Shown here: piece after piece, positions 1,251 to 62,879 of the stretch
Position numbering within the stretch: position 1 is the stretch's first letter
How the letters are laid out: every line of letters begins with the position of its first letter
Assembly (NCBI RefSeq): GCF_030028105.1
Contig: NC_092374.1
Span: forward strand, 57,669,016 to 57,733,015
Direction of reading: 5' to 3'
DNA length: 64,000 nucleotides
Source of the DNA: Mobula birostris
Taxonomy: Eukaryota
The notes under the pieces: generated by a model
The model's input: only the letters and a program-made list of their open reading frames with translations
What the model was told of the DNA's origin: nothing
Database searches by the model: none
Translations under genes and position numbers: made by a program

Positions 1251-1450
1251 AAACACAAAAGATTCTGCAGATGCTGGAAATCCAGAGCAACACACATGAA
1301 ATGCTGGAGGAATTCAGCAGGTCAGGCAGGATCTATAGAGGAGAATAAACAAAGGTCCTGACAAAGAATCTTGGCTCAAAATGTCTACTGTTTATTCCCT
1401 TCCATAGATGCTGCCTGACCTGCTGAGTTCCTCCAACATTTGTGTGTGCT
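1251..1450. mobile_element. Penelope-derived fold-back element (older)
   Basis: Inverted arms atgctggaggaattcagcaggtcaggcag / ctgcctgacctgctgagttcctccaacat, with a decayed hammerhead at the centre. Confidence 0.8.
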
Positions 1451-2215
1451 TCCCTGATTAATGCTGTTTTTGAGCTAACTGTTAATGCCCAAACAACAAA
1501 GAAAATTTCTTTTGTTTAAACAACTTTACCTTCAATGTTTCAGTTCAATACCTGAGGGCTGCGTCCTTTTTTCCCCACCACCACCCCACTGCCGACACAC
1601 ACGCGCATAACAGCACAAGTGCACATGCCTTCTAAGTACTTACTTAGTTCAAATGAACAGAACTCAACATTAACTGTCTCAGTATGCTGTTCCCTATCAA
1701 TATATTATAAGTTCATGCTGCTTTCAGCACTCAGGCTTGCTGCTGCAAAGTTACCTCTTGGGAAAATGTAGTACAGTTTGATCAGCACTCAACTAGCCGC
1801 AGGGAAACATTAGTAAAAAAAAAGGGTTGGGAGATTACCTCTGGGAAATCGTGTCGATATGGATAGGTGGTGAAGAACAGTCCAGTAAAAACATGTCCCT
1901 TGTGCAAGGGGTCCACTGCTATAGCCATATGTTCCTGGCACAAGTCTGAGGAATAGAGTGAATCCTGTACTTTGGGGAAACCTGCAATACAAGTAAAAGC
2001 TCATGCCTGCTTCTATGGATAGAAGGAAAGACAAATAGGTGGTCTGTCTAACTGATCAGTGAGCAGCAATCTGATGGACACAGTAGATTAGCAGTAGCAG
2101 CCTTGAAATAGTCTGGAGGCTGGGAAGCTAAGACAGAAGATGACCTCGTCTTCTACAGATAAAGCAGACAAAATACATGTGATGGGTTGTACTAGTGGTG
2201 ACAGGAATTTACAGA

Positions 2216-2414
2216 AACACAAAATACTCTGCAGATGCTGGGGTCAAAGCAACATGCACAACACGCTGAAGGAACTCAGCAGGCCGGGCAGCATCCGTGG
2301 AAACAAACAGTCAATGTTTCAGGCCAAGGTCCAAGGGTCTCGGCCTGAAACGTTGACTGTTCATTTCCACGAATGCTGCCCGACCTGCTGAGTTCCTCCA
2401 GCGTGTTGTGCATG
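2216..2414. mobile_element. Penelope-derived fold-back element
   Basis: Inverted arms; 13-bp TSD AGGAATTTACAGA at 2203-2215 and 2415-2427. Confidence 0.85.
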
Positions 2415-2519
2415 AGGAATTTACAGATATCCATGATGATAGAATGTAATTTCAGTGTTTGAATAACATGGTTACAAAGGAAATGAGATGAGTAAATCTT
2501 GGCTGTTTTGAGGATGAGA

Positions 2520-13240: not shown

Positions 13241-13691
13241 ACACATTCTTCTGACTTATGGACAAAATCAACTGATGGATGTATGTAAAAACAGAACCCG
13301 CTGATTATCTGGTGACCGGACAAATATTTAATACAGGTGTTCAAGATAATAGGCAAAAGAACTAGAGGGAAAATTAATTATTTTGTGCAGCTATTTGTGA
13401 TTATCTGGAGTGGTCCTCTGAAAGAAAACTGGAAGCAGAATAGTAATTTTCAAATTGCAGCTGTTGGAAGCAACTAAAAAAAAAACAAAAATCACAGGAC
13501 CAAATGTGAGACAGTGGATAAAGAGCAATGCAGCCAAAAACTTTATCCAATAACTCTCAAGAGGCTAGTAACCTTATGAGTCATTACTATTATGATAGTT
13601 CCATTATTCAGTTGATGATACATCTGAAAGCAGAGATCTGGATTCTACATTCCAATTTCACTATTAATTGCTACTGCACCATCATTCATAC

Positions 13692-14432
13692 CTGACCCTC
13701 CTGGAGCCTGAAACTGCTGCAAATCCATTTCTGCATGAGGAGTGAATCGAACCTTTAAGGAAGTCACAGGTGACTGTTTTATCCAAGTTGCAATATTGCC
13801 ATTGGACAATTTATTCCAAGATATGTTAATAGCAACATTATTTGTTTTCTTCCTCTTGCCGACTGTCAGAGATTTCTCAGGTTTAAGGCAACTTACTTCA
13901 TCTTCTTCAGTTATGCAGTTTATAGTATCACTGTGAACTAACTGGCTTTTGATTTTCTCCACGGTTAAATGTATGCTTTCATAAGAAGCAATCCCTTTTC
14001 CAGCAAGCTGATCAACTTTCTCATTTAGTTGATGTTCACAATACTTCTCTTTTTTGGGGTTATTGTTGGTAGTTGGTAGTGACATTTTTCTGACCTTGCC
14101 TTTTTCATCCATTATCTCGCCATCTGTCCTTCTAAATGGGCATGTGGTATCTTTGGGAGAATGTCCTACCTGATCAATAGCACGGTCGGCTACTACCTTT
14201 GAAGCCACTTTGACATGGATTGATTGCTTATCCTCACTCTCCTCAGTTACCTTCCCAGAGATCGGATTGGGTATTCCTTGGCATTGCTCTTCTGGCACAA
14301 AAACCTCTTGAGTCTCATTTGCATTATCCATTGGGTCAACCCTAGGTGTGTCATAATCTGGAATATATGGTTTAATGTCCAGTACTGGTGTTCCTTGTAT
14401 CATGTCAATTCCCGAAAGATAAAGAGTGTCAC
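13692..14432 (-). CDS. TRMO: TRMO coding exon 5 (DTLYLSGIDMIQGTPVLDIKPY...VRFTPHAEMDL...)
   Basis: GIDM..GTPVLDIKPY motif, long variable linker, then VRFTPHAEMDL; ttttcag| acceptor and |gtatga donor; 741 nt. Confidence 0.96.
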
Positions 14433-15219
14433 CTGAAAAAGGTTTGGAAATTACACAGTATCAAACACAAATAAAAATCAGTATTCATTGTTAAGCATGA
14501 GTATCCACAATATTAAAAATCGGACTGAATCAATTTGATCTATTTTTGATGGAATACAATTTAAAACATTAACATAGAGTCAAAGTTGATGTGAACTGGG
14601 ATCTCCAAATCCAGGAGAAATTGATCCAAAGATAACTTTCAAAGTTGCTTCAATTAAGAAACAATTTCACCTGAATAATGTAATCCCAACCTTCCCACGT
14701 CAGAACATGTGTAACACACTTAAATCTCCAAGTTTCCCAACAAATCCTATATTAACTTGATTTTGAATTCGATCACTGTTAATCATTACTGGCTCAGAAT
14801 TTTGGAATGATCCATGGAGAAACCTCACTACACATGCTGCAGCTGTTTCAAGCGGTGGTTATTCAGCACTTTTAAAGGCAAGTAGGGACAAGAGATGAGT
14901 CCCAGGAGTATCAAAGTCATCTATATGGCATGTGAACTACAAAATTTCCACTGCTTCCCTCCAGCTCTCACAACCTCCATTATGGGCACTGGCAATTTTT
15001 CAAAGGTTAATAGCATTGTTATTAAGATTCCTTTCACTGATCGTTTAAGCAGTTTGACACTCTTAGTGATTTAATGACTATTCATCTTTTTTAGTATGGA
15101 AACTGCAATTGCTCATAAAGCAAACATTCTGTCATTAAGAAAAGTTCCATCCTCAGACTTAAAATTTATTACTGCCTCCTTAATCTGGAATTCATGCAGA
15201 CAGCACTAAGATCTTCACT

Positions 15220-15644
15220 CACAAACAACAGGAATTCTGCAGATGCTGGAAATTCAAGCAACACACATCAAAGTTGCTGGTGAACGCAGCAGGCCAGGCA
15301 GCATCTCTAGGAAGAGGTACAGTTGACGTTTCAGGCCGAGACCCTTTGTCAGGACTAACTGAAGGAAGAGTCAGGGACAAGAGGTGAGTCCCAGGAGTAT
15401 CAAAGTCCTCTATATGGCATGTGAACTACAAAATTTCCACTGCTTCCCTCCAGCTCTCACAACCTCCATTATGGGCACCGGCAATTTTTCAAAGGTTAAT
15501 AGCATTGTTATTCAGATTCCTTTCACTGATCGTTCTTCCTTCAGTCAGTCCTGACGAAGGGTCTCAGCCTGAAATGTCGACTGTACCTCTTCCTAGAGAT
15601 GCTGCTTGGCCTGCTGCGTTCACCAGCAACTTTGACGTGTGTTG
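15220..15644. mobile_element. Penelope-derived fold-back insertion containing captured host DNA
   Basis: Two inverted pseudo-LTR arms; 14-bp TSD CTAAGATCTTCACT at 15206-15219 and 15645-15658. Confidence 0.9.
15546..15583 (+). ncRNA. Minimal hammerhead ribozyme motif
   Basis: cagtc-CTGACGA-agg gtctcag cct-GAAAT-GTC-gactg; 5-bp stem I. Confidence 0.65.
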
Positions 15645-15742
15645 CTAAGATCTTCACTTCTGCTTTTCTGCTTTGAACGAAGTCTTACTGTATGCAGCAA
15701 TGCAGTCTAGCGCCAACACTGAATATATTTGAAGCAGCTTAC

Positions 15743-15900
15743 CTTCAATCTTATCAAGCTTCCCCAATGTTAAACCTACTGCATTGGGACGGTGTGGACT
15801 TCTTGTAGAAAACACTCCAGTTTTTAGTCCATTCAGTCGAGGTGGTTTGACTTTAGCTTTATAGCTTTGATGCCCATTCTTGTGAAAAATAAAGATAATC
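15743..15900 (-). CDS. TRMO: TRMO coding exon 4 (IIFIFHKNG...GVFSTRSPHRPNAVGLTL...KIEG)
   Basis: Hallmark TsaA motif PPRL...GVFSTRSPHRPN; tacag| acceptor and |gtaagc donor. Confidence 0.97.
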
Positions 15901-16689
15901 CTGTATAAATCAATTGTTCCACATTTAAAATTTAGATATTTAATCACATATTCAAGCAAAGAATAAGATTATTCATTGGTACAGAAATTTTTAAAGAGTA
16001 TAGAACTTGTGTTGCAATATACCTATTGATTATTGATGGGATAATATAAAATGACTCCCGCACAGTGATTGCAGTATTCTGTAAATTAAGATATAGCCTT
16101 TAGTAATATACAACCACCACCATCTAAAAGACGAGAACTGCAGATACCTGGGAACACCACCATTTGGAAATCCCCCCTCCAAGTCACTCACCATTCTGAT
16201 TTGGAAACATATCACCATTCCTTCATTGTCGCCTGGTCAAAATCATGGAACTCCCCCCACTAACAGCACTGTGGGTACCTAAACCTTAGGGACAGCAGTG
16301 GTTCAAGAAGGCAGCTCGTCATCACCTTCTCAAGGGCAACTAGGGATGGGCAATAAACACTAGCTTAGCTGGTGACGCCCATTATCTCATAAACGAATAA
16401 ATAAAACACAAACATAACAGAAACAGCCACTCATACTTATTATATCATTCAATGAATTTTAAGGCTAATCTTTTATCTTAGCAGCACTTTACTGCACTAA
16501 CCACATATCCCTTAAGTTCCCTGAATCTGAATACCTCACAGCTGTTGTTATATCAGTGCCTCTGAACTGTACAGCATAGAAACAGGACCTTCAGCCCAAT
16601 TCGTCCCCGATACCCATGTACATTAATCCCATTTGCACACGTTAAGCTCATACCCCTCTTCTTTCCTATCCAGGGATCTATCCAAGTAT

Positions 16690-17480
16690 TCCCTTGCCCA
16701 TTCGTCCCTCCCCACTAATTTCCCTTTTGGCATATATACCTGCAAGTGACAGAAATGCTACACCTGCTCATTCGCCTACTCCCTTACTTTTATTCAGAGT
16801 CCCAAGCAGTCTTCCCAGGTGAGGCAACACTTCACCGATGCATCTGTTGTTGTTGTTTATTGTACCCGGTGCTTCCGATGAGGCCTCTTCTACCCAATGT
16901 GAATCTGTGGAACTGCTTTTTCAAGCAATTCCGCTCCTTGTGCCAAAAGTGGAATTTCCTTGTGGCCTATCCTCATTCCAATTCCGATATTTAAAATCCT
17001 ATCCCCATCGCTATTCCGACATGATAATCCATGGACTCCTCTTTTGCCATGATGAGACCATTCTCTGGGTACAGGAGCAACATCTCATACTCTGTGTAGC
17101 TGGCCTCCAACCTGATGGCATGACCATTGATGTCTCCTCCTAGTAACTGATCCCCTCTCCCTTCCCTCTTATATTCCCCACTCTGGCTTTTCCTCACCTG
17201 CCTATGACCACCCCCTAGTGCCTCTCCTTACCCTTTCTGCTATGGTCCACTCTCCTCACCCATCAGATTCCTTTTTCTTCAGCACTTTCCCTATCCCTCC
17301 CACCTGGATTCACCTATCACTTTCCTGCATGTCTTCTTTTTCCTCCACCCCACCATTTCATTCTGGCGTCTTCCCCTTTCTTTCCAGTCCTGTTGAAGGG
17401 TCTCAGCCTGAAACTTCGAATGTTTATTCATTTTCATAGATGCTGCCTGACCTACTGAGTCTCTCAAACATTTTGTGCAT
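16690..17480 (+). mobile_element. Decayed Penelope 3' end (GIY-YIG remnant plus pLTR)
   Basis: Similar to the 19901-20227 ORF (IHGLLFCHDE...EQHLI...LQPDGM); pLTR with hammerhead remnant near 17390. Confidence 0.75.
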
Positions 17481-19468
17481 TGCTCTGTCCACTCAATGCC
17501 TTTTAAACATTGTAACACATACCAAAGATGTACCAGTTGGCAGGTTAATTGCTCATTGCAAATTGTCCCGTCATTAGGCAAGGGTTGCCGGGTGGTGCGG
17601 CTCAAAGGGCCAGAAGGGCCAATTCCGCATGGCATCACAATAAATAAATAAACAAATGTATCTAGCTCTACAATTTCCTCTGGCAACTTGTTCTATATAT
17701 TCAGTACCTTCCATATGGAAAACATGGCCCTCATATCCCCTACTTCAAATAAGAAGTACTCAGTCTATCGAATCTCTCCTTAGTAGAGCTAATAGGACTT
17801 GATGTTTCAATCCCTCTGATAAGTTGGCACTCTCGATGTTGGCAGTGGGCTTGGAGTGATGACAAGGAGGGTAGGTACCTCATCAGGGTCATCAGATGGG
17901 TACCCTCCTTCTTTGATGTTTCATGATAAGCCCACGGCATCTCCAGAGGGTTCAATGATGCTACCTGGCATCCCAGATACACCCCCCTCAGTTCCATACC
18001 CTCCTGTCTTCATTTTGCAGCCCAGTTGCTGTCTTTCCTTTTAATCCAAATCCAATTGCTGCTTTCTTCTGCTGCATTTGACAAAGACTTGATTGCTTGT
18101 TGGAGTGAATAACCCTCACCCCCATCTTCTTCAATAGACTGGTCATAGATGTAGCCACGAATCCCGTGCATCCCACTTCTACAGGGAAAATCTTGGTCTT
18201 CCAGCCGTTCTGGGCAGCTTCAGTCGCCAGTTCAGAGTACTTGGTCTTTTTTCCTCTCATAAGCTTCTTCAACACCATCTTCCCCTGGTACTTGGCAATT
18301 CCACAACATATGCCAACATGGCTGTTATGGACCACAGGACCATGTCTGGCCCGAGTGTTGTAGCCACAATGTCTGGAGAGAACATAAGCTTTTTTCCCTC
18401 CCAAGTCCACGTCCATTTTCCAATCCCGAGCAACCTGCAGAATGCTTACCTCTTTTGATGTTATATGGTGCTCTGGAGGTTGGCCTGCTGGTACAAATCG
18501 TGTGATGTGAACATTTCTTGCCGATGTTTGTGGGAGAGCATTTGTGATGATTCGCCTCTGTTCCAAGATTGATGCCAGCTGTCTGAGAACTTGGTTATGC
18601 TGCCAAGTATACCGCTTCTGCCTGAGGCTCATGATGCATCCTGTTAAAATGTGCCTTAGTAATGCAGGTGCTTGACAAAGAGAGCAAGCGCGGTCTTCTC
18701 CCCACCACTGGTTCAGGTTCTGGGGTGTGGGTAAGAGGTCATAAGTGGCTCTGATGACAAAGCTTAGCCGAGATCCCTCCATCTCCCAGATGTCACGCCA
18801 GCTGAGTTTCCTCTTTTCCAGGCTCTCCCAATTAGTCCATTGACCCTGCTTGGCCATTGAGATGGCTCTGCCTCCTCCTGTCTTCCCACTTCCTCCACCA
18901 TGAGCCGTCTCTTCTGCACTGATGTTGCCTTGTGCCACTGAGGAGATGTTGGGACGAGCCCAAGCCCGGCTCTCCCAATTTGGACTTGGCCAACCACATC
19001 CCTGAAGCAAAGAGCAAACTTAGCACTCTGAACGGCTTCAGATGGGGTTCACTTCCTCCCCATTGCCACACGGGGGGCTGCTGTTCGAATAACAGTATCT
19101 TCAGATTCAGCGAGGGTCATGACCAATCTTGCTTTGGTGCATTTGAATTCTTCCACAAAACTTGTAACTGGTAATTCTAATTTGCCGTTCCCATACAGTC
19201 CAACAGGACTTAAGCATCGTGGAAGTTTCACATGTGTGCTGATCACTCTTTTGAACTTTTCCAACTTGTTGAAAGGGATTTCATACACTGTTAAAGTCCA
19301 CGAGTCTTGGGAGTATGCCGAACTGGAAGCACCACAGCTTGAGTTTTCCTGGCAGCCAGGTCATGTTGATGAAAGCTATGTACATGATGGTGTCCTTTTT
19401 TAGTTGTTTAAACTGCTCAGTGTCTTTGAGCTTAGCATCATACCATCAGCCGAAGCCCTTCACTGGCA

Positions 19469-20817
19469 AACAACAGGAATTCTGCAGATGCTGGAAATTC
19501 AAGCAACACACATAAAAGTTGCTGGTGAACGCAGCAGGCCAGGCAGCATCTCTAGGAAGAGGTGCAGTTGACGTTTCAGGCCGAGACCCTTCGTCAGGAC
19601 TAACTGAAGGAAGAGTGAGTAAGGGATTTGAAAGTTGGGGGAGGGGGGGTGATCCAAAATGATAGGAGAAGACAGGAGGGGGAGGGATGGAGCCAAGAGC
19701 TGGACAGGTGATAGGCAAAGGGGATACGAGAGGATCATGGGACAGGAGGTCTGGGAAGAAAGACAAGGAGGTGGGGGGGGGGGACCCAGAGGATGGGCAA
19801 GGGGTATATTCAGAGGGACAGAGGGAGAAAAAGGAGAGTGAGAGAAAGAACGTGTGTATAAAAATAAGTAGCAGATGGGGTACAAGGGGGAGGTGGGGCA
19901 TTAGCGGAAGTTAGAGAAGTCGATGTCCATGCCATCAGGTTGGAGGCTACCCAGACGGAATATAAGGTGTTGTTCCTCCAACCTGAGTGTGGCTTCATCT
20001 TTACAGTAGAGGAGGCCGTGGATAGACATGTCAGAATGGGAATGGGATGTGGAATTAAAATGTGTGGCCACTGGGAGATCCTGCTTTCTCTGGCGGATAG
20101 AGTGTAGGTGTTCAGCAAAGCGGTCTCCCAGTCTGTGTCGGGTCTCGCCAATATATAAAAGGCCATACCGGGAGCACCGGACGCAGTATATCACCCCAGC
20201 CGACTCACAGGTGAAGTGTTGCCTCACCTGGAAGGACTGTTTGGGGCCCTGAATGGTGGTAAGGGAGGAAGTGTAAGGGCATGTGTAGCACTTGTTCCGC
20301 TTACACGGATAAGTACCAGGAGGGAGATCAGTGGGGAGGGATGGGGGGACGAATGGACAAGGGAGTTGCGTAGGGAGCTATCCCTGCGGAATGCAGAGGG
20401 GGGGGGAGGGAAAGATGTGCTTAGTGGTGGAATCCCGTTGGAGGTGGCGGAAGTTACGGAGAATAATATGTTGGACCCGGAGGCTGGTGGGGTGGTAGGT
20501 GAGGACCAGGGGAACCCTATTCCTAGTGGGGTGGCGGGAGGATGGAGTGAGAGCAGATGTACGTGAAATGGGGGGAGATGCATTTAAGAGCAGAGTTGAT
20601 AGTGGAGGAAGGGAAACCCCTTTCTTTAAAAAAGGAAGACATCTCCCTCGTCCTAGAATGAAAAGCCTCATCCTGAGAGCAGATGCGGCGGAGACAGAGG
20701 AATTGCCAGAAGGGGATAGCGTTTTTGCAACAGACAGGGTGAGAAGAGTAGTCCAGATAGCTGTGAGAGTCAGTAGGCTTATAGTAGACATCAATGGATA
20801 AGTAGACATAGTAGACA
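19469..20817 (-). mobile_element. 5'-truncated Penelope-like element (Neptune type) inserted in the HERO element
   Basis: GIY-YIG ORF 19901-20227 (VIYCVRC...LYIGET..RL..RF.EH), YPCKRNKCYTCP Cys linker, RT thumb remnant, 3' pseudo-LTR; TCACTGGCA duplicated at 19460-19468 and 20818-20826. Confidence 0.9.
19565..19602 (-). ncRNA. Minimal hammerhead ribozyme motif in Penelope pseudo-LTR
   Basis: Minus strand: agtc-CTGACGA-agg gtctcgg cct-GAAAC-GTC-aact; core intact, one stem I mismatch. Confidence 0.7.
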
Positions 20818-23800
20818 TCACTGGCATTTCTGAAACAGTTAGCACAGGTGTTCCGTCAATATGAAATCTTTGATCCGTGACTTGACCTTTGACAATGGAT
20901 TTGCTTCTGCACTAGCTGGCTTGATCTTCATCCTCGCCCATATGATGTTTTGATGAAGCTTTTCCAGAAGTCTCTTGGTGCAGGGGACAGTTGTTGTCAG
21001 TATTGTTATATCATCCATACAGGCTCATATCGGTAGTTACCGTTGACCAAACTGTAGCCGTTTTCCTCCCGCAACCCATTTTGAAGCTCTGATAATAAGC
21101 TCCATTGCCATAGTGAAGGGCAATGGGAAGATGGTGTACCCTGCCACGATGCCAATTTCCGGTGGTTACCAAACTGTGGTGAAGTCTGTGTTGTGAGACA
21201 AACTTGCAGATCCTGGAAGTAGTGTTTTAGCAGATTTGTCATTGTTGCAGGCACCTGAAAAAATTCAAAACAGTCCACAGTAGAGAATGAGGAATTGATC
21301 CATAGGCATTGGCCTGTTCAAGGAACAAGACATGCAGATCCTTTCCTTCTTTCTTAGCCATCTGGATTTGATGCCATATGACACTGGTATGTTCAAGGCA
21401 TCCCGAGAAGCCTGCTATGCCAGCCTTTTGGATTGACGTATCAATTAAATGGTTTTGTTTCAGATACTTTGTAAGTCTTTGCGCCAACACGCAGAAGGAG
21501 ATCTTACCTTCTATGTTCAGGAGGTTTATTTGGTGAAACTGTTCGATGGTGGACAAATTCTTTTCTTTCGGGATCAGAACTGCCCCCTGCTCTTCTCCAG
21601 GCTTTGGGGATCACTTGCTTTTCCCACGTAATCCTCGTGTTTCTCCAGAGAAATTTCAGAATATCCGGGGTGTTCTTGTAGAGACAATACGGAATACCAT
21701 TAGGGCCTGGCACTGATGCCGATCTTGCCTTCTTCACTGCCTCTTTCACCTCACTCAGCTTGGGAGGGCTGATATTAATTGATGTTGTGAGGGTGAGATT
21801 GGTGGAATGTCATCTCTTAGCTCATCAGTGTGGATGTTTCCGAGATATCTTTCAACCTCTTCTTTTGATACTTTCAAGGATCTGCTTTTCTCTTTTGTGA
21901 AAATGCCTTTCACATACTTAAAGGGATCTTTAAGAAGTCTGTTGTTTTCTCCTTTTTGTGTCGTTTCCTTAAATTCTCTGCTCTACACAGCTTCGAGTGC
22001 ATCTGTTTCAGGTCCTCTTGAAGGAGGTTGATGCCCTCTCTTTCTTCTGCTGTTGCTTTTTTCCACGACTTCCTCAGGCCTCTTCTTTCTTTGAAAGTTG
22101 TTGGACTTCCTGGAGATGACAGAATTTGGGGGGAGGAGGCATATCATTCCTGTTGACTTGTTCCTTCACTCCAAGCTTCTCCTTTCCATAGTTATAAATC
22201 AGGTCGCCCATTTTCTCCAACTTCTTTTCTGCTGATCCCTTGATGCCACTTAAGATCAGGTTCACATCTGCATTGATGGTTTCCCACTCCTCACTGTTAG
22301 ACTTTGACCATTTCACCAACGGCTTACGTCCTTACATGCTTTCCACTTTACAATGTGCTTGGCTATGACTTGAACTACAGCTTGTGCCTGAAACTTCTTC
22401 CACATCTCGTAGGGTGCTGATACTCTAAGGACTGTGGGTTTCTTCCCGCCACTGAGTTTCAACCGACTGATTTGACCTTCCTCTTAACAGAATCTGGTCA
22501 ATGCAGGGCCCTGGGTTGGAGATTTTCAAGCATTTCTTCTGTCCTTGATGAATTTTAAGACCACGAGTTGATATTACTTTAGTCCAGCCACACCTACAGG
22601 TCCGAAGAACATCCCCAGCTGCTGGTTTCTCAAGAGTATTGCCACTTTTTTGATTCACTGTCATGTCCATGCCAAGGTTCGTTACCGGGAGGTCAGTCAG
22701 TGAGTCTTCTTGCGCACCCGCTCTCGCAGACTCTGGGGGTATACTTCTCTTTAAACTTCCTGTAGCCAAGTGAGGGAGGCTCTTGTGCCCTGACAAGGTG
22801 ACGGAGCCTGCTGTTATGGGTAGCTAGCCTGGAACAGCCCTGTTGGGGTCTATTTCCTCCTCAGCTGTCTCTCCAGCTGTCACACCGTCATATAAATAAA
22901 GCCCTCGAATTCAGGCGCATTATGATGGATACCATCTGCACTCTTTGAATGCAACCACATCCTTCCTGTAGTGTAACAACCAGAACTGCACACAATACTC
23001 CAAGTGCAGCCTGACCAATACTCTGAACAAATCATGAAGCAGACCCATCCAGCAAATTTTGTACTTAAATGCCAGACTGATGGTGGAGAAAATCTTTCTA
23101 ACTTTCAAGGAAAGTCATCATCATATTAAAATAATCCACTCTACATATTAGATAAACCTAACATATTTGCATATATTTTGTTTTCAAACTGTGGTCTTGT
23201 ATCAGTACTCGAGTCCGCATCAGCACTGGACTTCGAGGTGGATGGTCCTGCGCTGGAATCTGGCCAGGTCCCAACTGGATAGCAGCAGTATCTGCGCGGA
23301 AGAAAGGCCTGGCAATTTGCTTCCGTATCTTGCCACAAAAACCCGATGGACAACTACACTATCCATAGGGTTGCCATAAGTCAACAATGACTTAATTATA
23401 TTATCATTCTCAACATCCCCAGTAGAAAATTTTATGACAAGGAACTAGAAAAATATATTACAAGGCTCTATTGTTCTCATGGAGTCTTTCAGAATGAGGC
23501 TACAAGTCAGAGCCTCTCTTATTTTTTTTTCCCACTTTGCTCTTTAGTCCAAGCTGGGAACTGTATCAAAAAGGAATGCTGATCCGAGATTTTAAAAAAA
23601 TACACTGTAATGCTGGTGCTCCAATTTCTTACAGCATTGTCTTCCTCTGAGAGTGTACAGTTCCTAAGTTTGAACATATTGCTACAGTTTTATTTTCTTT
23701 CTGAAAATTAATACCCAAGTTACAGAAAGTGATCACTGTAAAGCATTAAAGCAGGAGCTATATTTCATGATAGAGTAGCCCAGCCGTTTGTATCGGAATC

Positions 23801-24644
23801 CAGACATTCCTGAGACAATGCAAATATAAGCCAAAAAAAGAAAATGAACTGGTTTGTTATCTGCAGCATTCCTGATTGGAATCTAAGGGCTCAGATATAC
23901 AAATGGCCAGAAACAAATGAAAGCTCCAAATTAATTTATAGACATGTACACTGGAATAGCAGAGAAGCTTTGTTAAGCAACACTCCACATAAATTTCTCA
24001 TCTCCATTAAAAACATCAGAGAAAAGATAGAATCTGATAATTTATGTTCAAGTTTAAATTGGTTACAGTTATTTTCTCTAAAAAAAAAATAGGAGGGTGA
24101 TGTGTCAACCTGAGGTTTATAATGTAACAAAAGGCCTTAACAGGGAAAATACTTGCAAACTGAGAACCCAAAACTAGGAAGTCAAAAATAAGATATAGTC
24201 ACTAAATAATACAATGGGGTTTTCAGGGGAAGAACTTCTTAGAATGTGGCGTTCTGAGAGGCAGGACTGTGCAGGCGTGTGACGTCGGGCAGTGCAGCGC
24301 GGCAGATTTAAAAGGGCAGACATCCTGCTTCGGGTTTGATTCAAAGAAGGAGTCTGAGAGTCTGAGTGGGAGTGCCGAGAAAGACATTTTTGAAATTTTC
24401 GTTATTTTTTTTCTCCAACGGCGTTTTGAGAGGCGGGACTGCGCAGGTGTGTGACATCGGGCAGTGCAGCGCGGCAGATTTAAAAGGAACAGAGCCTCAT
24501 AGAGCGGGCAGCGTAGTTTGCGGGCTGCAGAGTGAGCCGGGAGCAGAGTGAAGACTTAAGGACTTCAGCTCAACGGGCTTAGGCGGAAACAGGCGAGGAA
24601 GGTTTGGCATTCATTTTCTGTTGTTATTTGAGGAGAGGGGCAGT

Positions 24645-25580: not shown

Positions 25581-25585
25581 AATGG

Positions 25586-36542: not shown

Positions 36543-36747
36543 CGCAAACACGAGGAAATCTGCAGATGCTGGAGATTCAAGCAACACACACAAAAAATAC
36601 TGGTGAACGCAGCAGGCCAAGCAGCATCTATAGGAAGAGGTACAGTCAATGTTTCGGGCCGAGACCACTTTTCCCGAAATGTCAACTATACCTCTTCCTA
36701 TAGATGCTGCCTGGCCTGTTGTGTTCACCAGTATTTTTTGTGTGTGT
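36543..36747. mobile_element. Penelope-derived fold-back element inserted in Gypsy remnant
   Basis: Inverted arms of about 90 bp; 15-bp TSD GGCATATTCATCAAA at 36528-36542 and 36748-36762. Confidence 0.88.
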
Positions 36748-40964: not shown

Positions 40965-41152
40965 TAGCAACACACACAAATCTTACAAATCAACACCTCA
41001 GCTTTTTTTCCTCTAGTCCTGCTGAAGGGTTTTGGCCTGAAACATTGACTGTATTTTTTTCCATAGATGCTGCCTGGCCTGCTGAGTTTCTCCAACATTT
41101 TGTGTGTGCTGCTCGGTTTTCCGGCATCTGCAGACTTTCTCTTGTTGATGAG
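40965..41152 (+). mobile_element. Penelope-derived short element
   Basis: pLTR with CTGCTGA...GAAACATT hammerhead remnant; 12-bp TSD CTAATAAAATTT at 40953-40964 and 41153-41164. Confidence 0.8.
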
Positions 41153-41849
41153 CTAATAAAATTTGAAATGCATTAATCAAAGAGTGTGTTCAATATAAGT
41201 AAAAACAGAACTGACTGTATTTTCAGAAATATTTTCATTTACCGAGCACCTCCCTTATCTTTTCCTAGGTCATCCTAATCCATTTTACAACAAATGGAAG
41301 TATTAAGATGGAGTTATGACTTTAATCTAGTGAAGAATATCCAACAATTTGTACACAGCAATTGTCAAAATGCATTCCAGAATCTAAATATCTGTTCAAA
41401 GTGATCTGTTTGTCCACAAACAGTAATGAAAAAGAACACTTCAGATGCTGGTAAAGTGGAATAAAAACAATAGAAAGTTGAATATAGTCAGTAGGTCAGG
41501 CTGCTTAAATGTCTCGCAATCTAACATCTGTCCAATACAGAGTCTCAACCCTAAATGTCAACCATTCTTTATGCTCCACAGATGGTGCTTGACCTAGTGA
41601 GTTCTTCCAGCAGTTTATTAGTTAACCACTAGAAATAGATTATCTTCTTTGGGATGCTGGTTCAAGGTATAACCAAGTAATTGGAAGGAATGCCCTAATG
41701 ATCTTCAAGGTGGCAGCCAGAAAATCTTTTATATCCAGATGGGGCTCAATTTAATGTCACTTCAAAGAAAACTGCATTCCATTCAAACTAGCTGGAAACA
41801 CAGGTAGCAAAATAAGAGTGAGATTATACCAGGCAATCCAAGAATCAAA

Positions 41850-42100
41850 TAAAAACAGAAAATACTGGAAAGATTTAGCAAGTCAGGCAATATATGTACA
41901 GTGAGTGATACACACAAGATGCTGGAGGAACTCAACAGGCCAGGCAGCATCTACGGAAATGAGTACAGTCGATGTTTTGGGCCAAGCCAATTTCCAGCAT
42001 CTGGAGATTTTCTTTTGTTTGTGATCTGTACAGTGAGAACTGTTAATGTTTCAGGTTAATGGCCTGTTAAATAATTTTCAGCATCTGCAGTTTTGTGATT
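41850..42100. mobile_element. Penelope-derived element nested in an older member of the same family
   Basis: Inner copy flanked by TGTACAGTGAG at 41895-41905 and 42027-42037. Confidence 0.75.
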
Positions 42101-45559: not shown

Positions 45560-46010
45560 AGACACAAGGGCCTATTTCCGTGCTCTGTGATTATAGACCT
45601 TCGGGAACGGCGTGAAGAGCGTCCTACAACCGGGACTATTGTCTGTGGCCGCAGACCCCACCCCCCTTCGCTTCGGTCCCGCTCCCTCACCTCAAGTTCT
45701 TCAGTTCAGCCCTCAGGGTGCGGGCCTGAGCCAGCAACAGCTGCAAGCTCACCGCCCGCGCTCCAGCACAGCTATCGGCTCCTGCTCCCACCGCAACATC
45801 CAATCCACTCACATCCATGACACCAACAAGCGCTCCACAACCACCCACGCGATCTGCCTCTGCCGCTGCCGCTGCCGCTGCCGCCGCCGAGCCCCCACCA
45901 CGTGATCTGCCGCCGCCGATTCCCACACCACGTGATCTGCCGCCGCCGAGTCTCCACCACATGACCCGGAGGGCCTCGGTTACCGTGGCAGCGGATTGGC
46001 CAGTGGGATT
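45560..46010 (-). promoter_or_regulatory. CpG-island promoter of TRMO with E-boxes, CCAAT box and RFX X-box-like motif
   Basis: Locally very GC/CpG rich in an AT-rich window; CACGTG at 45899-45904 and 45929-45934; GTTACCGTGGCAGC at about 45979-45992; ATTGG (CCAAT on minus) at about 45995. Confidence 0.8.
45691..45818 (-). CDS. TRMO: TRMO coding exon 1 (MDVSGLDVAV...RAELKNL, phase-2 end)
   Basis: ATG in good Kozak context (gtcATGG) inside a CpG island; ends at AG|gtgag donor; phase joins exon 2 to give Arg. The start codon choice is inferred (another in-frame ATG lies at 45962). Confidence 0.8.
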
Positions 46011-46043
46011 CCCTTCGCATTCAAAGTTCAAAGTGCATATAAT

Positions 46044-46280
46044 CCTGAAGAAGGGTTTCTGCATGAATTGACCTGACGAAAGGTCTCGGCCTGAAACGTC
46101 GTCTGCACCTCTTCCTAGAGATGCTGCCTGGCCTGCTGCGTTCACCAGCAACTTTGATGTGTGTTGCTTGTCAACTGTTTATTTATTTTCCGTAGATGCT
46201 GCCTGACCTGCTGAGTTCCTCTAGCATTGTGTGTGTATTGCTTTGGATTTCCAGAATTTTCAGACTTTCTCGTGTTTATA
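46044..46280 (+). mobile_element. Two nested Penelope pLTR arms
   Basis: A young arm (about 46070-46170) interrupts an older arm within its hammerhead. Confidence 0.75.
46070..46103 (+). ncRNA. Minimal hammerhead ribozyme motif just upstream of the TRMO promoter
   Basis: gac-CTGACGA-aagg tctcgg cct-GAAAC-GTC-gtc; 3-bp stem I. Confidence 0.55.
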
Positions 46281-47852
46281 TTATCAACCATGAGATTGTA
46301 TTCCTGCAAACAGCCACGAAACTAACACCATAGAACCTGTTCAGAGAAAAACCCCACAGAGAAAAAGATCAAATGCCCAACAAGCAAAAAAAGAATAAAT
46401 CATGCAAACAGCAAAAAGTGAGCAGATAACACCCAGAACATTAAACAAAAAAACCACAGTCCCCAAAATGATTCCAGAGCCACAACCCCCAAGTCAGTCA
46501 GTTCAGTGCTGTGTCAATGGCTGCAGGCCACAATGTGCATAGCTAGTTCCATGCCTCAATCAAATTGCATAAACGGTAAAAAAGAGTAAACACAAAATAC
46601 ATGGAAAGTGAACTGCAGGCTCCCCAAAAATGAGTCCACAGCCGTGGAGGGTGTTCAGCATTGAGGACATCAAACATCAAACTACAGAGTCCCCTGAAAA
46701 TGAGCCCATAGTCACGAGCCTCTGGGATGATTGAACCTTGCAGCATGGGATCTAAGACTCCTACAGCTTCAAGAGGAGACCAGTTAAATGCAAGCAGAGG
46801 GTGCTGAACACCTGTTCGTTTTCTGCTCTCATTTTTATTAATCTAGCTCGACACCTCAAATGGAGTGGTGTGATGGAGCCGACATCTGGTTCACGTTTCC
46901 CCATTAGGGATCAATGGGCACCCTTGCGTCCTCCACTATCCAACCTCGACGAATCCCCCTGGAGATTGCAGAAGTGCCCGATCCAATCCCGCTAAGAGCG
47001 GCAGCGGTTTTTACCTGCAAATGGAGCAGCGTCAATGCTGCCTGTTGTAGAGCACAGGTTTGGCTACACTAACCTCTCTCACAAGAACACAGCAACAGGC
47101 TACTCAGCCCATCCAGCCTGTCCAACATGGCTGATCTGCCCTAGGCCCCTACTCTTCTTCCTTGTCACTTTCCTACTCAATTCTCCTCTTTAAATACCCT
47201 CAATGATCAATGTGTAAAACCCTCTGTGGTAGGTAATTCCGGATGTTCACCACCCACTTCAGGAATAACTTCCCTCGCACCTTAGTTTTAACCACAGGCC
47301 TCTCCAGGTTACAAATGCTCAACTTGTGTACATACGACCAATGGAATGAAGTTGCTGGCTGCTGCAGGCTTGCAGGCCTCTTCAGCCTGTGAGAACTTGG
47401 TTTGTGGCTACATTTCCCACTTTCTGACTTTGGTTTACAGAGTTTACAGGAACAGAAGCCTGCCACAGCCTGGAAATGTTCTGCAACTGTCCCTTATTTA
47501 TAACTATAAACCCTCTCACCTAGTGCTCTGATCAGCCTGGAGGTTACATCTGTGCTCATAGACCCATGCTAGCCTCTAGTTAGTTTTTTTTAATTTTAAG
47601 ATTTTTATGCTTGTTTTTAAATTTCTGTGTTGTCTTACTGCTCTCTATCTCTGTGACCTCCTCCAATCATGCAACCTTCTAAACAAAAATATATTTTTAA
47701 AAAACTGCAGATGCTGGAGATTTGGAAAGCAACGATGCTGGAAACAGTCAACAGGTCAAACAACATCTTTGGAAAAAGAAACAGAGCTAATGTTTCAGGT
47801 AGAAACCCTTTTATCAGATCTTTACAAGTGTTGTCTTGAGCTGCTGAGCACT

Positions 47853-50039: not shown

Positions 50040-50905
50040 ACTCCCTTGTCCATTAGTTCTTCTTGGCACTTATCCCTGCAAGTGTGACAAATGCTACACT
50101 TGACCCGACACCTCCACCCTCACCAGAACTTAGAACACCATACGGTTCTTCTGGGTGAGACAATGGTTCACCTGTGAGTCTGCTGGGGTCAGCTATTGTA
50201 TCTGATGCCACCCAGTGCCAGCTCCTCCACATTGCTGAGACTTGACTGCTTCATTGAGCATCTTCATTCTATCTGCCATCAAAAGCAGGATCTTCCTGTG
50301 GCCACCCATTTCACTTTGACTCCCATTTCCAAACTGGCATGTCTGTCCATGACCTTTTCTACTCCCATGATGAGGGCAAACTCAGGTTGGAGAAGCAACA
50401 CATCATATTTCATCTGGGTAGCCTCCAATGTGATTACACGAACATTGATTTCTCTAACTTCGATTAATTACTCCCTTTGCCCTCCCCTCTCTTTCCATTC
50501 CCCATTCCAGTTACCCTCTCAGCCCCTTTCTCCTCACATGCCCATCACCTCAATCGGTTCTCGTCCTTCCTTTTTTTATCATGCTCCATTATCCTCTCCT
50601 ATTAGCTTCCTTCTTCTTCAGCCCTTTACCTCTTCCACCTATTCCACCCCCCAGCTTCTTACTTCCTCTCTTTCCCTCACCCACCCACTTTCCTCCTCAT
50701 TTGATTTCACCTACCACTTGCCTACTTGTTCTCCTCCCCTCCCCCCCACCTTCTTATTCTGGCCCCTTCTTTTTCAGTCCTCATGAAGAGTGTCAGCTGA
50801 AATATTGACTGTTTCTTTCTCTCCATAGATATTGTAGCACCTGCTGAGTCTCTCCAGTATTTTCTGTGTTGCTCAAGATTTCCAGCATCTGCAGAATCCC
50901 TTGTG
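50040..50905 (+). mobile_element. Decayed Penelope 3' end
   Basis: CFIEHLHSIC...DLPVATHF motif; pyrimidine-rich 3'UTR and pLTR. Confidence 0.75.
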
Positions 50906-51159
50906 TCTATGTTGTACAACAGTTTGATAAAGTGAGATCAAGTCGAGTGGGAGGAGCCTAGTGCAGAGCAAGGACCTCATTGGACAACATCGGCTACTTC
51001 TATACAGTTAATACTTATATTTCTATAGATTATTTTCATTCAATGGGAAGCTTATCAGAGCAACACACACAAAATGCTGGAGGAACTCAGCAGGCCAGGC
51101 AGCATATATGGTAAAGAGTTAACAGTCAATGTTTCAGGCTGAGACCCTTCATCAGGGTG

Positions 51160-57049: not shown

Positions 57050-57630
57050 GGGAAAACACAAAAAATGCTGGAGGGACTCTGCAGGTCAGGCAGCGTCTAT
57101 GGAAATGAATAAACAGTCGACATTTCGGGCTGAAACCATTCATCAGGGCTGGAAAAAAAGATGAGAATGTAAAGCAAGAAGGTGGTGGAGGGGAGGAAGA
57201 AGCACAAGTTGCAGGTGATAGATGGAACCATGAGAAGGGAGTGAAGAGTTTTGGCATGAAACGTCAACTGTACTTTTCCATAGATGCTGCCTGCCCTGAT
57301 GAGTTCTTCCTGCATTTTGTGTGTGTAGCTTGGATTTCCAGCATCTGCAGATTTTCTCTTGTTTGAAGTTGATTGGTAGATGCTCAGCGAAGCAGTCTCC
57401 CAATCTACATCGGGTCTCACTGATATGTAGGAGACCCCACCGGATACAGTATACCTGACAAAGATCTGGAGACTGCTTTGCAGAGCATCTACCCTCTGTC
57501 CACTAGAAAATGCAGGATCTCCTGGTAGCCACCCATCTCAATTCCACTTCGCATTCCCATTCTGACACGTCAGTCTATGGCCTCCTCTATTGCTTCTTCC
57601 TCCCCTCCCCCCACCTTCTTGCTGTGACTT
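57050..57630. mobile_element. Scrambled Penelope fragments in both orientations
   Basis: Inverted pLTR arms plus GDCFAEHL fragments on both strands. Confidence 0.65.
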
Positions 57631-58384
57631 CTCAGAGGGCTACAATGCTTCTTAAACAGGTCAATTCTAGCTAGCACAAGGATGTGGCTCTCGATAAACA
57701 GGTAAAATAAGACATCTACTGCAAATTTCCACTCCTAGAAATCTGCAACACTGTGACATCTAGTTCACAGGCTAGTATAATCTCCTGTAGGTCCCACTGT
57801 TCTACGTACAAAATGTAACACTATGATGCCCAGAACTATTGGCTCACCAGTTGCTACCCAGTGTACAACAGTAGTTCACCAACATATCAGTGCCCCATTT
57901 TCTTAACGTTTGGCTGATGCATATGTGAATGTCTCATGGCTACCATTTCGTAAATGTGTGCTCTTAACTTCAATTTACTGCTGCTTCTTGTTTGAATTAA
58001 TTTCTGCTACATTCACTTAGCTCCAGAATACTCCTTAACATACCCTCCTCTTGGCCCCTGGACAGAAATCTGTCCCAGCAAGGCCAAACTTTAAGGCTGG
58101 TCTAATTAAGTAGGTCAGCTAAAATGCCTTTCATTTCAGGTAAGGATTATGCAGTGAATGGTAGGACACCGAGGTTGCGCGGTTGAACAAGTAAACCTGG
58201 GAATACTGTTTAAACAAGTCATTTCATTTACACAGTGTAAGGAGAACAAAATAATTGTTACTCCAGATCCAATGCAGCACAAAGTAAAACACAAAAGATA
58301 AGGAACACTTTAATAATAATAATAATAATAACACATAATAAATATAAATTCATAAGATAGCTTAAATTGATAGATTGACAAGAT

Positions 58385-59028: not shown

Positions 59029-59550
59029 CATACGTATACTTTGATAATAATTTTAATTTGAATTTTGATATATGATGTTGGTGAGACCAGTTTCTGGTCA
59101 CCAACTTGGAGGAAAGATATTAATCAACTTGAAAATTTACATGGATGTTGCTGGGACTTAAGACCTGAGTTACAGGGATAGGTTGAATAAGTTGGTACTT
59201 TATTTCACTGATTGCAGGAGAATGAGGTGTGCGTAATTATGAGGGGTGTAGATAGGATGAATGCATGCAGGTTTTTGCCCCTCAGGTTGGATGAGACTAT
59301 CACTAGTGGATGTAGGTTTAGGGTGGAAGGTGAAATATTTAAGGGGAAAATTTTCACTCAGATGGTGGAACATGCTGTCAATGGAAAGGGTGGAGGTGGG
59401 TTCATTTAAGAGAAGTTTGGATAGGTACAAGGATGAAAGAGGTGTCGAGGACTATGATTCAGATGCAGGTAGATGGGGCTAGGCAGAAAACCGGGCTGGC
59501 ACATACTAGAGGGGCCGAATGGCCTGTTTCTATGTTGCATGATTCTATAA
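58385..59550 (+). mobile_element. Rex1-like 3' fragment followed by CR1 3' fragment
   Basis: GCITA.Y and LLPSGRR, then CR1 3' end gggccgaatggcctgtttctatg. Confidence 0.7.
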
Positions 59551-61319
59551 CATAAAAGGAAATTTTCTGGACATTGTGCATTTTCCTGCAAATACCTGTA
59601 GAGGGAGCGAAAGTGCTGTTAAAGGAAGATGTTCTCTTACCACTGTTAACTTCAATTACTGTGTGCTTCAGACCTTGAAGAGCTAAGTGACAGGAAAAAC
59701 ATCAAACAAATGGTGCCATTAAAATGTTGTAGAGAAGTAAACATCTCAGATGTGTCAGCTTTACTAATTTGATTGTTTTTAATAGTTCTGATCAGTGAAA
59801 TTATTGCTATTGCTGTTGTCTTGTATGATCTAAGGACATTCTGTGACACATTATAGTTAATGAAGTATTTCTGATGTTTGGTTACTGTTGTAATGAGAGA
59901 AAGACGGCAGCCATAAGGACCCACTAAAAAGTGACAAAGTAAATTACATGCCTGATTATTTTAGGTATTGGAGTATAAATATTGATCACAAAAACAGGAT
60001 CCTTCCATTCACTTGGTGGCATTTTCACCAGTGTAGCACTCCAAACAGTAATGGAGTGGTGCATCAGTCTGCATTTTCATGCTCACCCCAGAGTGAAACT
60101 TGAATGAAAAGCCGACTAACTCCCAGCAATAGTGTTACCAACCAAGCCATATACTGTATTCCCCTGAGAAGGTCAGCACATTTTATTTTGCCTTCTCTGA
60201 AATAATAGCACTATAGCACCAATTTTAAAAAATGTCATAGGTCTCTGCACAATTGGGTTTGGGCTAGGTTCCAGAATTTTCAAATTAATGTACCTCATTT
60301 CGTCCTATACTCAGAGTGTGACTATGCTTACAAGCAATATTGAACTTTTGGCAATTGCACTTAAAGTTGTTTCATAGCAGTAGGATCTTTTTGAATTGCA
60401 TCATATCATGCAGCAAAACAGAGCTCAATTCGTTGAGTAGGTTTATTTGTACAATCAGTCTGTTGAACACTGATGAGGAACCACCCACTCTCCTTCACAA
60501 AGTAATAGCATATTGCAGAGCTTCAAAGCGTTACCTTACAATTGAATATAATTAGGATTGTCTGGAAAGCCTTTTGCAGCTGTCTGATTTTCTTCCAAGG
60601 TTGCTCCCTCAGAGCCAGATTAAAATGAATTATGGATCGGCCATTTTTCAGCTCATTGGTTGGCTTGTTTTTAATCAAAAGATTTCTTAGATTAATACCA
60701 AAGGGGAACAATGGTTCATCAAAGAAGCACAATCAAAGTCAAGTCCACGGTATTGTGGTAGACTCAACTATATGGAAATGGGTCTCGAAAAGCTGCAGTG
60801 ATGAATGATTCAATATTTGGTGGGGTGGGGGGCATTTCACTGACCACGTACAGAATGTAATTCCAGAATGGTGTGTTGCCTTCCAGTGCTAGGGTCAAGG
60901 AATTTGCTAAATAGCTACAGAGCATTTCGATGGGAGAGGTTTCACAACTAGAGTTCATGGTCCACTTTCTGGGAGATTAGTAAGTAGGATCACAAAGGTA
61001 GTAATATCAACACCACTACCTGCACCATGTGTCAATAAATATAGAAGTATGAGATTAATATAGCTGAATGTATGGCTTAAGAGAGATGGTGCAGAACAGG
61101 GCTCTTTAGATTCATGGGATATTGAGAACTGTTCTGGGAAGATTGGACCAGTACAATCTATAAAATCATAAGACATAGGAGCAATATTAGACCATTTGAC
61201 CCATCAAATCTGCTGCATCATTTGATCATGGCTGATGTATTATTCCTCTCAACCCCATTCTCCTGTCTTCTCCCTATTACCTTTGATGCCCTTACTAAAC
61301 AAGAAACTATTGACCTCCA

Positions 61320-61754
61320 TCAAAGTTGCTGGTGAACGCAGCAGGCCAGGCAGCATCTGTAGGAAGAGGTGCAGTCGACGTTTCAGGCCGAGACCCTTCA
61401 TCAGGACTAACTGAAGGAAGAGTGAGTAAGGGATTTGAAAGTTGGAGGGGGAGGGGGAGATCCAAAATGATAGGAGAAGACAGGAGGGGGAGGGATAGTC
61501 TGAGTCAAAGTGTGGTCGAAAAGTTGAAGAGCCGAAGAAATTACAGATGGGGAGCAGTGAGAGATGGTTTCACTGAACTCCCGTCGAAGAGAGGATCTAA
61601 ACTTCTTCGGTGTAGGCATCACCGGAAGAGGCTTCGCAGTAGTGAATTTAAACGCAAACAACAGGAATTCTGCAGATGCTGGAAATTCAAGCAACCCACA
61701 TCAACTTTGATGTATGTTGCTTGAATTTCCAGCATCTGCAGAATTCCTGTTGTT
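61320..61754 (-). mobile_element. Rearranged Penelope insertion (pLTR, 5' end of ORF, inverted terminus)
   Basis: 15-bp TSD AACTATTGACCTCCA at 61305-61319 and 61755-61769; same pLTR sequence as 19469-19690. Confidence 0.85.
61372..61409 (-). ncRNA. Minimal hammerhead ribozyme motif (best-preserved copy)
   Basis: Minus strand: tagtc-CTGATGA-agg gtctcgg cct-GAAAC-GTC-gactg; stem I agtc/gact, stem II agg/cct, palindromic ACGT stem III. Confidence 0.75.
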
Positions 61755-62879
61755 AACTATTGACCTCCACTGGGTTGAGTTGCAATCCAGGCAGTTTGCA
61801 ACTCAAATGGGCTGGGAAAATTGTTACTGCAGTTGGAACTAGATTGGGAGGGGATGAGAAACTAACTGCACTATACGTTGAATGCATCTACATTTTTCAG
61901 AAACACCTGTACCATGTAGTATGACTTTTGAATCATTGATGTATTGGTGATTGTTGTCAGAGTATTGTATACCATCAGTAAAGTAAGGTCTATCTTGTTA
62001 TTTACCTTATTAAGCAGCAATATGAAGAACATTGGTGACATGGATAAGTATCTTCTGAGTAAGTGGCAAGGCAGTGATCAGGTGTTAGGTAAAAGAAGGT
62101 AATAATGACCGTTGGTGAATGTGGCGTGTATGTTACACAGCCAGAAAATATGGGAGGTCGGAGACATGAGAGACCCGCAGATTTTGAAATCTAGATCAAC
62201 ACATAATCTGCTGGAGCAACTCTGTGGGTAGACCTGCATCTGTGAGGGGAATGGAATAAGACTGGCAATTTTCACAAGTTATACTGTGTATTTGGACTAA
62301 AAGAGGTGGGTAAAGGGTGTAATTTTAAGACCGTTTTAGAACAAGCCCCATGAGATCATTTAGATGGCAATCAGAGGAATTCAAACAAAACAGTTTGACG
62401 CCCTGGACCTGAAGTTTGGGGAGTTACATTTTGCTTAGAGCATGATATTGAGGGGCAGACATTGAGCAAGCCATGCAGTAAGTAAGTACCCATTTAAGAA
62501 GGGTCCATTTTTAAAAATCTGCTGGATAGGGCATATTACGTGGTTATGCAGGCCATTCAGGAAGGCAACCTCTGCTGAGGATAGTCGTCTCTTTTTTGGC
62601 ATAAATACAAGGGAACAATGACGTAGAACAGTCTCATTGGAGAACCATCCATACATTGGAGTTAGAGAATGAAGAGACAGAAACAAAAGCAGAGAATACT
62701 TAGCAGCTCAGACAGTATCTGTGGTAAGAAAAAAACAGTTCATTTTTCAGGTTGGAGATCTTTTGTCAGAATGAAGAGGTAGAGCTGGGTACTTAAATGG
62801 AATTTATTCTACAGTTGTAGAGGGAGTTATGAACAATGCATTGGTAACTCTCTTATCAATTGAAGACATAATAATAACC

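Follow-up and report, generated by a model that had tools for sequence, protein, structure and literature searches.

What gives rise to the short, often palindromic, hammerhead-bearing sequences scattered through a 64,000-nucleotide stretch of the Mobula birostris genome (GCF_030028105.1, contig NC_092374.1, positions 57,669,016 to 57,733,015; the whole of this stretch is called the window below)? An earlier note on this DNA regarded them as Penelope derivatives and left a choice between non-autonomous, retrozyme-like units and products of two-ended priming. We found that the short units correspond to the pseudo-long terminal repeat (pLTR) at the 3' end of a Penelope-like element (PLE) that is abundant and carries an endonuclease. 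They were left by 5'-truncated insertions and are not a separate small family, whether retrozyme or miniature inverted-repeat transposable element (MITE). Of the two options, two-ended priming is favoured, while the retrozyme option is opposed by the lack of a tandem array, a continuum of truncations and a cleavage site that was mostly read through. The insertions probably arose by two-ended priming, in which uncleaved RNA was reverse-transcribed from two fixed sites and the two cDNAs were then joined.

Copies of the unit, here called arms, were sought with nhmmer, using a profile of 13 arms from the window and the reversed window as a control; all counts of arms, ends and centres refer to the 64-kb window. 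Positions in the element are given as rel, counted along its sense strand from hammerhead residue C3 (window position 19597, minus strand, is rel +1), so that the predicted hammerhead cut falls after rel 28. Outer ends near rel 132 are termed long and those near rel 92 short. The element itself was recognized from three features:

19469..20817, minus strand: 5'-truncated, single-armed PLE whose pLTR runs to the long end
19901..20377, minus strand: frame with a zinc-finger-like linker motif and a GIY-YIG endonuclease (Pfam GIY-YIG, E 4.5e-5)
61497..61619, minus strand: start of the element's open reading frame (ORF), with its ATG at 61619 (rel 167), identified by protein match

The search returned 32 matches at E≤1 (29 at E<0.01), spread over about 21 loci, against zero in the reversed control; this agrees with the more than 15 copies claimed previously. 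Copy lengths form a continuum of 5' truncations, from about 100 bp up to 0.83, 0.85 and 1.35 kb. The short units share their 3' end with the copy at 19469-20817, which comprises a reverse transcriptase (RT) thumb remnant, a CX4CxxC linker, the GIY-YIG endonuclease, a 3' untranslated region (UTR) and the pLTR, and is flanked by a 9-bp target-site duplication (TSD) of its own (19460-19468 and 20818-20826). The earlier identification of the unit as the 3' pLTR of this GIY-YIG element was thus correct. At 19469-19700 the pLTR lies 3' of the ORF, and at 61709-61620 it lies 5' of the ORF and leads into the ATG at 61619; the unit, found both after and before the coding sequence, therefore behaves as a pLTR, and its Penelope origin is confirmed. 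The window contains no full-length copy of the element. In contigs from public sequencing runs the highest summed depth, which is not a copy number, falls in the pLTR bins; two raw-read runs, X21 and X22, gave 0 and 1 reads of the element.

The structures most informative about origin are insertions with two arms arranged head to head. Each is named below by the start of its left TSD or, where no exact TSD exists, by its approximate start:

1251..1449: two-armed; left arm (-) rel ~32-132, right arm (+) rel -2 to 91; decayed TSD 1238/1450, 10 of 13 positions matching
2216..2414: two-armed; left (-) rel 13-131, right (+) rel ~7-89; exact TSD 2203/2415, 13 bp
15220..15644: two-armed, young, in an intron of the TrmO gene; left (-) rel ~-21 to 133, right (+) rel ~-16 to 94; exact TSD 15206/15645, 14 bp
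36543..36747: two-armed; left (-) rel ~10-133, right (+) rel 18-92; exact TSD 36528/36748, 15 bp
40965..41152: two-armed; left (-) stub of ~16 nt ending at rel 97, filler, right (+) full hammerhead to rel 135; exact TSD 40953/41153, 12 bp
41906..42026: two arms without overlap, in twin-priming geometry; left (-) rel ~11-92, right (+) rel 99-136; exact TSD 41895/42027, 11 bp
61320..61754: three-piece, young; (-) rel 85 back to -90, then the 5' region of the ORF and the upstream part of the pLTR (rel 77 on), then (+) rel ~78-129; exact TSD 61305/61755, 15 bp
57054..57636: complex old locus without TSD; (-) arm rel -89 to 92, (+) arm rel ~4-133, then further pieces
41428..41620: very old, possibly two-armed locus without TSD; ends at rel 126 and 88; arms not mutual nearest neighbours

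All six exact TSDs of 11-15 bp that had been reported lie at element ends, and a search for identical duplications at random position pairs returned 11 bp or more in 1 of 3000. The description of these six loci as palindromic fold-backs holds as far as their head-to-head arms are concerned, but four are not simple palindromes: the arms of 41895 do not overlap, the left arm of 40953 is only ~16 nt long, 15206 has a 162-nt centre of host DNA, and 61305 is made of three pieces.

Our end count covers seven loci, the six with an exact TSD and 1251 with its decayed one. In the order listed, their long outer ends lie at rel 132, 131, 133, 133, 135, 136 and 129 and their short outer ends at rel 91, 89, 94, 92, 97, 92 and 85. 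Every locus (7/7) thus combines one long end (~132) with one short end (~92), and the difference of 38-44 nt corresponds to the known Penelope 'tail'. If each end had chosen independently at about 50:50, such an outcome would have p ~0.008. The long end is on the left at four loci and on the right at three, the pattern expected of anti-correlated, strand-blind site use. Loci 57056 and 41430, left out of the count for want of a TSD, also have one long and one short end. This pairing, like the prior description of the architecture in PLEs, had escaped the earlier note. Contigs from two public runs have loose ends with unlike flanks at the same positions, at 19466 (rel 132; at least 212 contigs in X1 and at least 28 in X15) and at 19504 (rel 94; at least 22 contigs in X15); X1 could come from the same sample as the window, X15 is only presumed to be RNA, and these contigs show neither independent occurrence nor expression. 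The short site sits in a predicted stem-loop (-6.0 kcal/mol, consensus fold of 11 long arms).

In the scheme that we favour, the RT-endonuclease, probably as a dimer, would make a staggered cut in the target, and the 3' ends thus freed would prime on pLTR-containing RNA. Each would use one of two set internal positions, which lie ~40 nt from each other, and both arms would most likely be copied from a single molecule. Both cDNAs would stop early, mostly within the hammerhead or the downstream stem-loop, and would be joined head to head, with homology of a few bases, filler or locally copied DNA at the junction. In source elements the hammerhead would be kept, the RNA copied here would be mostly uncut, and the inserted stubs would be decaying dead ends.

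The evidence for two separate primings comes from how far the arms reach. At 1251 (rel -2 versus ~32) and at 2203 (~7 versus 13) the short arm outreaches the long one on the 5' side, and at 41895 (rel ~11-92 against 99-136) it lies further 5' with zero overlap. A short arm beyond or outside the long arm means that two primings are needed at these three loci. In L1 twin priming, both target ends prime on the RNA, leaving an inverted 5' piece and a short-homology junction, and the second site is variable. Locus 41895 shares this geometry, but in the ray copies neither site varies, and in most cases the sequences of the two arms overlap.

The 5' ends of 14 arms, scored by eye, indicate what template was copied: about nine lie between rel -21 and +18, four at rel 77-99 and one near rel 32. 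Most cDNAs had therefore passed the cut site, and the template RNA was uncut. We rejected the idea that arms begin at the hammerhead cut site, since only about 1 of the 14 ends lies near rel 29. Stops in or just before the hammerhead could reflect either stalling or an RNA start at that point. At 2203 and 36528 the two arms share private variants and are mutual nearest neighbours.

Several observations count against priming at two fixed sites or limit what can be drawn from the copies. The partner arm is the nearest relative in only 6 of 14 comparisons, and at neither 57056 nor 41430; the young subfamily is too uniform for the partner-arm test. Loci 36528, 40953 and 61305 are also compatible with a self-priming fold-back, and arm sequences are equally compatible with one-RNA and two-RNA templates. 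Well-supported two-armed loci number seven, all from one window, and no empty site was seen, although no genome-wide search for one was made. The loose end at the short site appears for X15 only, among the best 6 of more than 2100 rows per run, and the stem-loop around this site is weakly supported, with 1 of 15 pairs covarying.

A more specific version can be offered tentatively: programmed twin priming, in which a dimeric RT-endonuclease with active sites ~40 nt apart would act on one RNA, each cut end would be committed to one site, and the cDNAs would be joined, sometimes via copied flank. If true, one rule would cover the inverted pLTR, the one-sided tail and the capture of host DNA, and the stubs would be its bare footprints.

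Among the alternatives, self-priming fold-back survives best, yet we consider it unlikely. Here one primed cDNA (or antisense template) would copy itself back, and the endonuclease would resolve the second end ~40 nt short, leaving the tail on one side. It has been proposed in PMC3846280 and, for the tail, in PMC8557442, and besides fitting the three loci named above it accounts for private variants common to both arms and for a near-perfect 48-bp hairpin at 61657-61754. An arm copied from the long one cannot, however, outreach it in the 5' direction, as the short arm does at 1251, 2203 and 41895 (and at the TSD-less 57056 and 41430); moreover, the arms of 41895 have no sequence in common, and the host spacer at 15206 would require an extra template jump.

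It is improbable that the stubs are longer insertions, bounded by inverted pLTRs, that later suffered internal deletion. Microhomology deletions of this kind have been described (PMC3846280), and 61305 does contain an internal deletion, in which the ORF start is fused to the 3' UTR at rel -90 (61320-61709). Against such an origin, the spacer and arms of 15206 are of the same age, single-armed copies are equally short, and the two end types would stay unexplained, so that a two-ended origin would still be required. The deleted unit at 61320-61709 may have arisen from a single template jump, or it may be a mini-element.

A discrete non-autonomous family mobile as a unit, in the form of retrozyme-like circles or a MITE-like palindrome, is very unlikely and for the palindromes largely refuted: the abundance of short units, the top summed contig depth (not copy number) in pLTR bins, the derivation of animal retrozymes from pLTRs (bioRxiv 10.64898/2026.07.22.740005) and the potential mini-element at 61305 speak for it, but there is no tandem array of the unit, the seven centres are distinct and one contains local DNA, truncations run continuously to 1.35 kb, the cut site is not where arms begin, the perfect motif is found in 2 of 29 arms, and palindrome transcripts fold as long hairpins.

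The centres of the two-armed insertions bear directly on where they were built. All seven are different, and one contains local host DNA, which upholds the earlier proposal that each fold-back formed anew. A check for identical centres, the mark of a simple MITE, instead gave these seven centres, outer ends ~40 nt apart and TSDs of 9-15 bp. The host DNA belongs to 15206:

15373..15534, plus strand: captured host DNA between the arms, identical to 14884-15045 at 158 of 162 positions
14884..15045, plus strand: local source of the spacer sequence, at a distance of 160-320 bp from where the element inserted
13645-14460 and 15654-15968, minus strand: TrmO exons (tRNA methyltransferase O; Pfam PF01980) flanking the insertion

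This centre being a copy of adjacent host DNA, the insertion at 15206 was built in place. Non-CpG differences number 3 of 162 between spacer and donor and 2 of 111 between the two arms, a similar divergence that indicates a like age for capture and insertion. The spacer joints share 1-3 bases, as judged by eye, and the orientation of the spacer fits a template in either the resected left flank or nascent RNA of the host gene. As a by-product, the capture duplicated intronic sequence beside a TrmO exon (14884-15045 and 15373-15534).

What, then, is the status of the hammerhead? Two copies illustrate the motif:

19565..19602, minus strand: minimal type I hammerhead motif with one stem I mismatch (C3 at 19597)
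61372..61409, minus strand: best-preserved hammerhead motif, with an intact core, a 5-bp stem I and a palindromic stem III

The minimal hammerhead with a loopless stem III that had been described is supported: the motif at 61372-61409 and that of the arm at 15534 have all the features of minimal PLE hammerheads (CUGANGA, GAAA, UH, stems I and II and a palindromic stem III). In the 19469 copy, the mismatched letter of stem I is the minority one in public-run contigs. The core pattern occurs in 6 of 29 aligned arms, five of them with a pairable stem III, and missed the core-intact arm 46072 because too little upstream sequence had been taken; a core with a perfect 5-bp stem I is found in 2 of the 29 (15534+ and 61404-). 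The assertion that every copy carries the motif, intact or decayed, goes too far, many arms being cut inside or downstream of the hammerhead. An Rfam search returned no hammerhead among its 16 matches at E≤10, so the call leans on anatomy and on the published description of minimal hammerheads. We rejected a candidate compensatory change in stem I at 46072, where the upstream letters are those of an older copy.

Conservation is higher in the core than elsewhere in the arms, as a check of the earlier proposal confirmed. At non-CpG positions conservation was 0.94 in the core against 0.79 at 115 other positions (permutation p 0.0004), and 0.92 against 0.79 (p 0.0008) in the 19 arms left after removal of 10 redundant ones, values to be read knowing that the arms are related and were found with a profile containing the core. 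Two core-adjacent CpGs are heavily decayed (C17, 12/23). The pattern suggests selection in source elements, not a function of the stubs. Computed folds of transcripts across the palindromes are long hairpins (72-87% paired), and the dimer hammerhead fold, which would be the active one, is not the computed minimum (-11.5 kcal/mol against -26.7 for the best cofold).

A pyrimidine tract followed by AG, resembling a splice acceptor, occupies rel -14 to -2 in most arms (for example 19600-19612 and 61407-61419, minus strand). It precedes the hammerhead core in several subfamilies, and its AG also belongs to stem I; in Drosophila virilis, an intron end maps to helix I (PMC4209133).

The coding sequence places the element among known PLEs. 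The frame at 19901-20377 shares 94% identity with protein P0001 of Mobula hypostoma, and five Hypanus sabinus proteins, 75-86% identical, cover most of it. The ray homologues (75-94% identical) show, in order, an RT motif (YIDD), thumb, CX4CxxC linker and endonuclease. The CX4CxxC motif conforms to the CX2-5CxxC linker, a finger that marks Neptune and Nematis and that Penelope/Poseidon lack (PMC8557442). On the strength of this motif, the element is classified as a PLE of the Neptune/Nematis type. The 41 residues at the ORF start align with positions 1-41 of the shark proteins P0012 and P0013 (E ~4e-4, 61% identity). A DKG-like motif, seen by eye at the end of P0013, suggests that these are PLE N-termini; neither protein has a Pfam match, and P0012 does not overlap P0004. 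For the 68-residue ORF start, a word-indexed search gave no matches and a full HMMER search three, one of which (P0011) was rejected as a repeat artefact. Gene models named mucin-2, divergent protein kinase and chitinase-domain isoforms match the element's ORF (P0003, P0004, P0008, P0012) and are probably mis-annotated or exonised Penelope pieces.

Much of the architecture is already published: inverted pLTRs, the tail, TSDs, the capture of host DNA and minimal hammerheads, some of them paired on opposite strands. Insertions of endonuclease-containing (EN+) PLEs are described as 5'-truncated, with an inverted, 5'-truncated head-to-head copy, a 30-40 bp tail at one end, TSDs (8-10 bp in the rotifer) and host DNA between pLTRs (PMC3846280; PMC8557442). 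The ray copies share these five traits (5' truncation, inverted copy, one-end tail, TSDs and host DNA between pLTRs), and the element has a C-terminal GIY-YIG endonuclease, pLTR on both sides of its ORF, and tail plus inverted copy at 7 of 7 loci. They differ in being mostly stub-sized (120-435 bp), in their TSDs of 11-15 bp and in captured DNA that can be traced to their own flank.

A close biochemical parallel is the Poseidon element PAc of Anolis carolinensis, which in vitro cuts and extends both strands from two adjacent internal start sites that define the tail, with no strand difference in start site, a predicted dimer and no requirement for hammerhead cleavage (PMC11167929). Two adjacent internal RT start sites, an upstream hammerhead, an uncleaved RNA template and extension of both strands are common to PAc and the ray element. 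PAc lacks the linker finger, and its start sites lie inside the ORF because that ORF begins within the hammerhead, whereas the ray ATG at rel 167 is 35 nt beyond the long site. The text of the PAc study that was consulted does not describe pairing of the start sites within one target molecule.

Metazoan PLE hammerheads are mostly dispersed single motifs, with opposite-strand pairs 100-700 bp apart (PMC4209133). As minimal type I motifs they share with the ray sequence a loopless palindromic stem III, a 4-5 bp stem I and a possible unpaired base before stem II (PMC4209133); the ray sequence has a short stem II, of 3-4 bp, and in its young subfamily the pair beside the core is G-U or A-U instead of G-C. 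Non-LTR retrozymes of animals, reported from one chondrichthyan (bioRxiv 10.64898/2026.07.22.740005), are likewise short, non-coding and pLTR-related with a type I hammerhead, but form head-to-tail tandems with complete hammerheads, whereas the ray copies are head-to-head, truncated and TSD-flanked. None of six tandem-repeat rows represents the ray unit, where a retrozyme would have two or more consecutive units with complete hammerheads, and the sole same-strand hammerhead neighbours are a nested pair at 46037-46279, one member of which is decayed.

The origin of Penelope inverted ends and of the one-sided tail has been called undefined (PMC8557442). In the literature searched, judged in part by title, we found no publication on this ray family and no account of the one-sided tail as fixed-site twin priming, though subscription papers may hold one. 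As a repeat family these copies are ordinary; their value is mechanistic, a testable rule for the making of Penelope ends. The strict short/long pairing, the lack of overlap between the arms of 41895 and the capture of local DNA by 15206 lead to a specific, countable prediction for any ray assembly and for PAc in vitro. For annotators, the 200-bp palindromes resemble MITEs or microRNA hairpins (weak Rfam microRNA matches) and are neither.

The remaining copies are single, nested or old:

155..301, minus strand: old single arm (nhmmer profile)
1-51, 35198-35286, 42566-42675, 47703-47817 and 62698-62777: further old arms (nhmmer profile)
16653..17487, plus strand: old copy, truncated at its 5' side, with a short end and a remnant of the endonuclease
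46037..46279, plus strand: older copy whose hammerhead seems to have received a young copy, 46072-46170 (rel ~1-98)
50061..50908, plus strand: old copy, likewise 5'-truncated and with a remnant of the endonuclease, but with a long end
51055..51156, minus strand: single arm with short end, rel ~0-99

Single-armed copies comprise five with long ends, three with clearly short ends and three that are old and unclear. A search for TSDs found none at 57056, 41430, 50061 or 16653. The nested pair at 46037-46279, the window's only same-strand hammerhead neighbours, may have a CpG-decayed duplication of 5-6 bp, and GC-rich CTGCCG and 30-bp tandem repeats (45854-45964) lie just upstream of it. The mosaic at 57054-57636 includes head-to-head endonuclease fragments at 57376-57443 (-) and 57453-57592 (+) and a 3' UTR piece without a hammerhead.

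Two non-PLE retroelements are also present. The PLE copy at 19469-20817 interrupts a decayed non-LTR element at ~17988-22800 (minus strand; weak RVT_1 match at 21239-21610), which we take to be HERO/R2-like and whose frame continues across the 9-bp TSD. A near-complete long interspersed element, presumably CR1-like, occupies 24552-28601 (plus strand) and encodes an esterase-type ORF1 (GDSL), an apurinic/apyrimidinic endonuclease and an RT.

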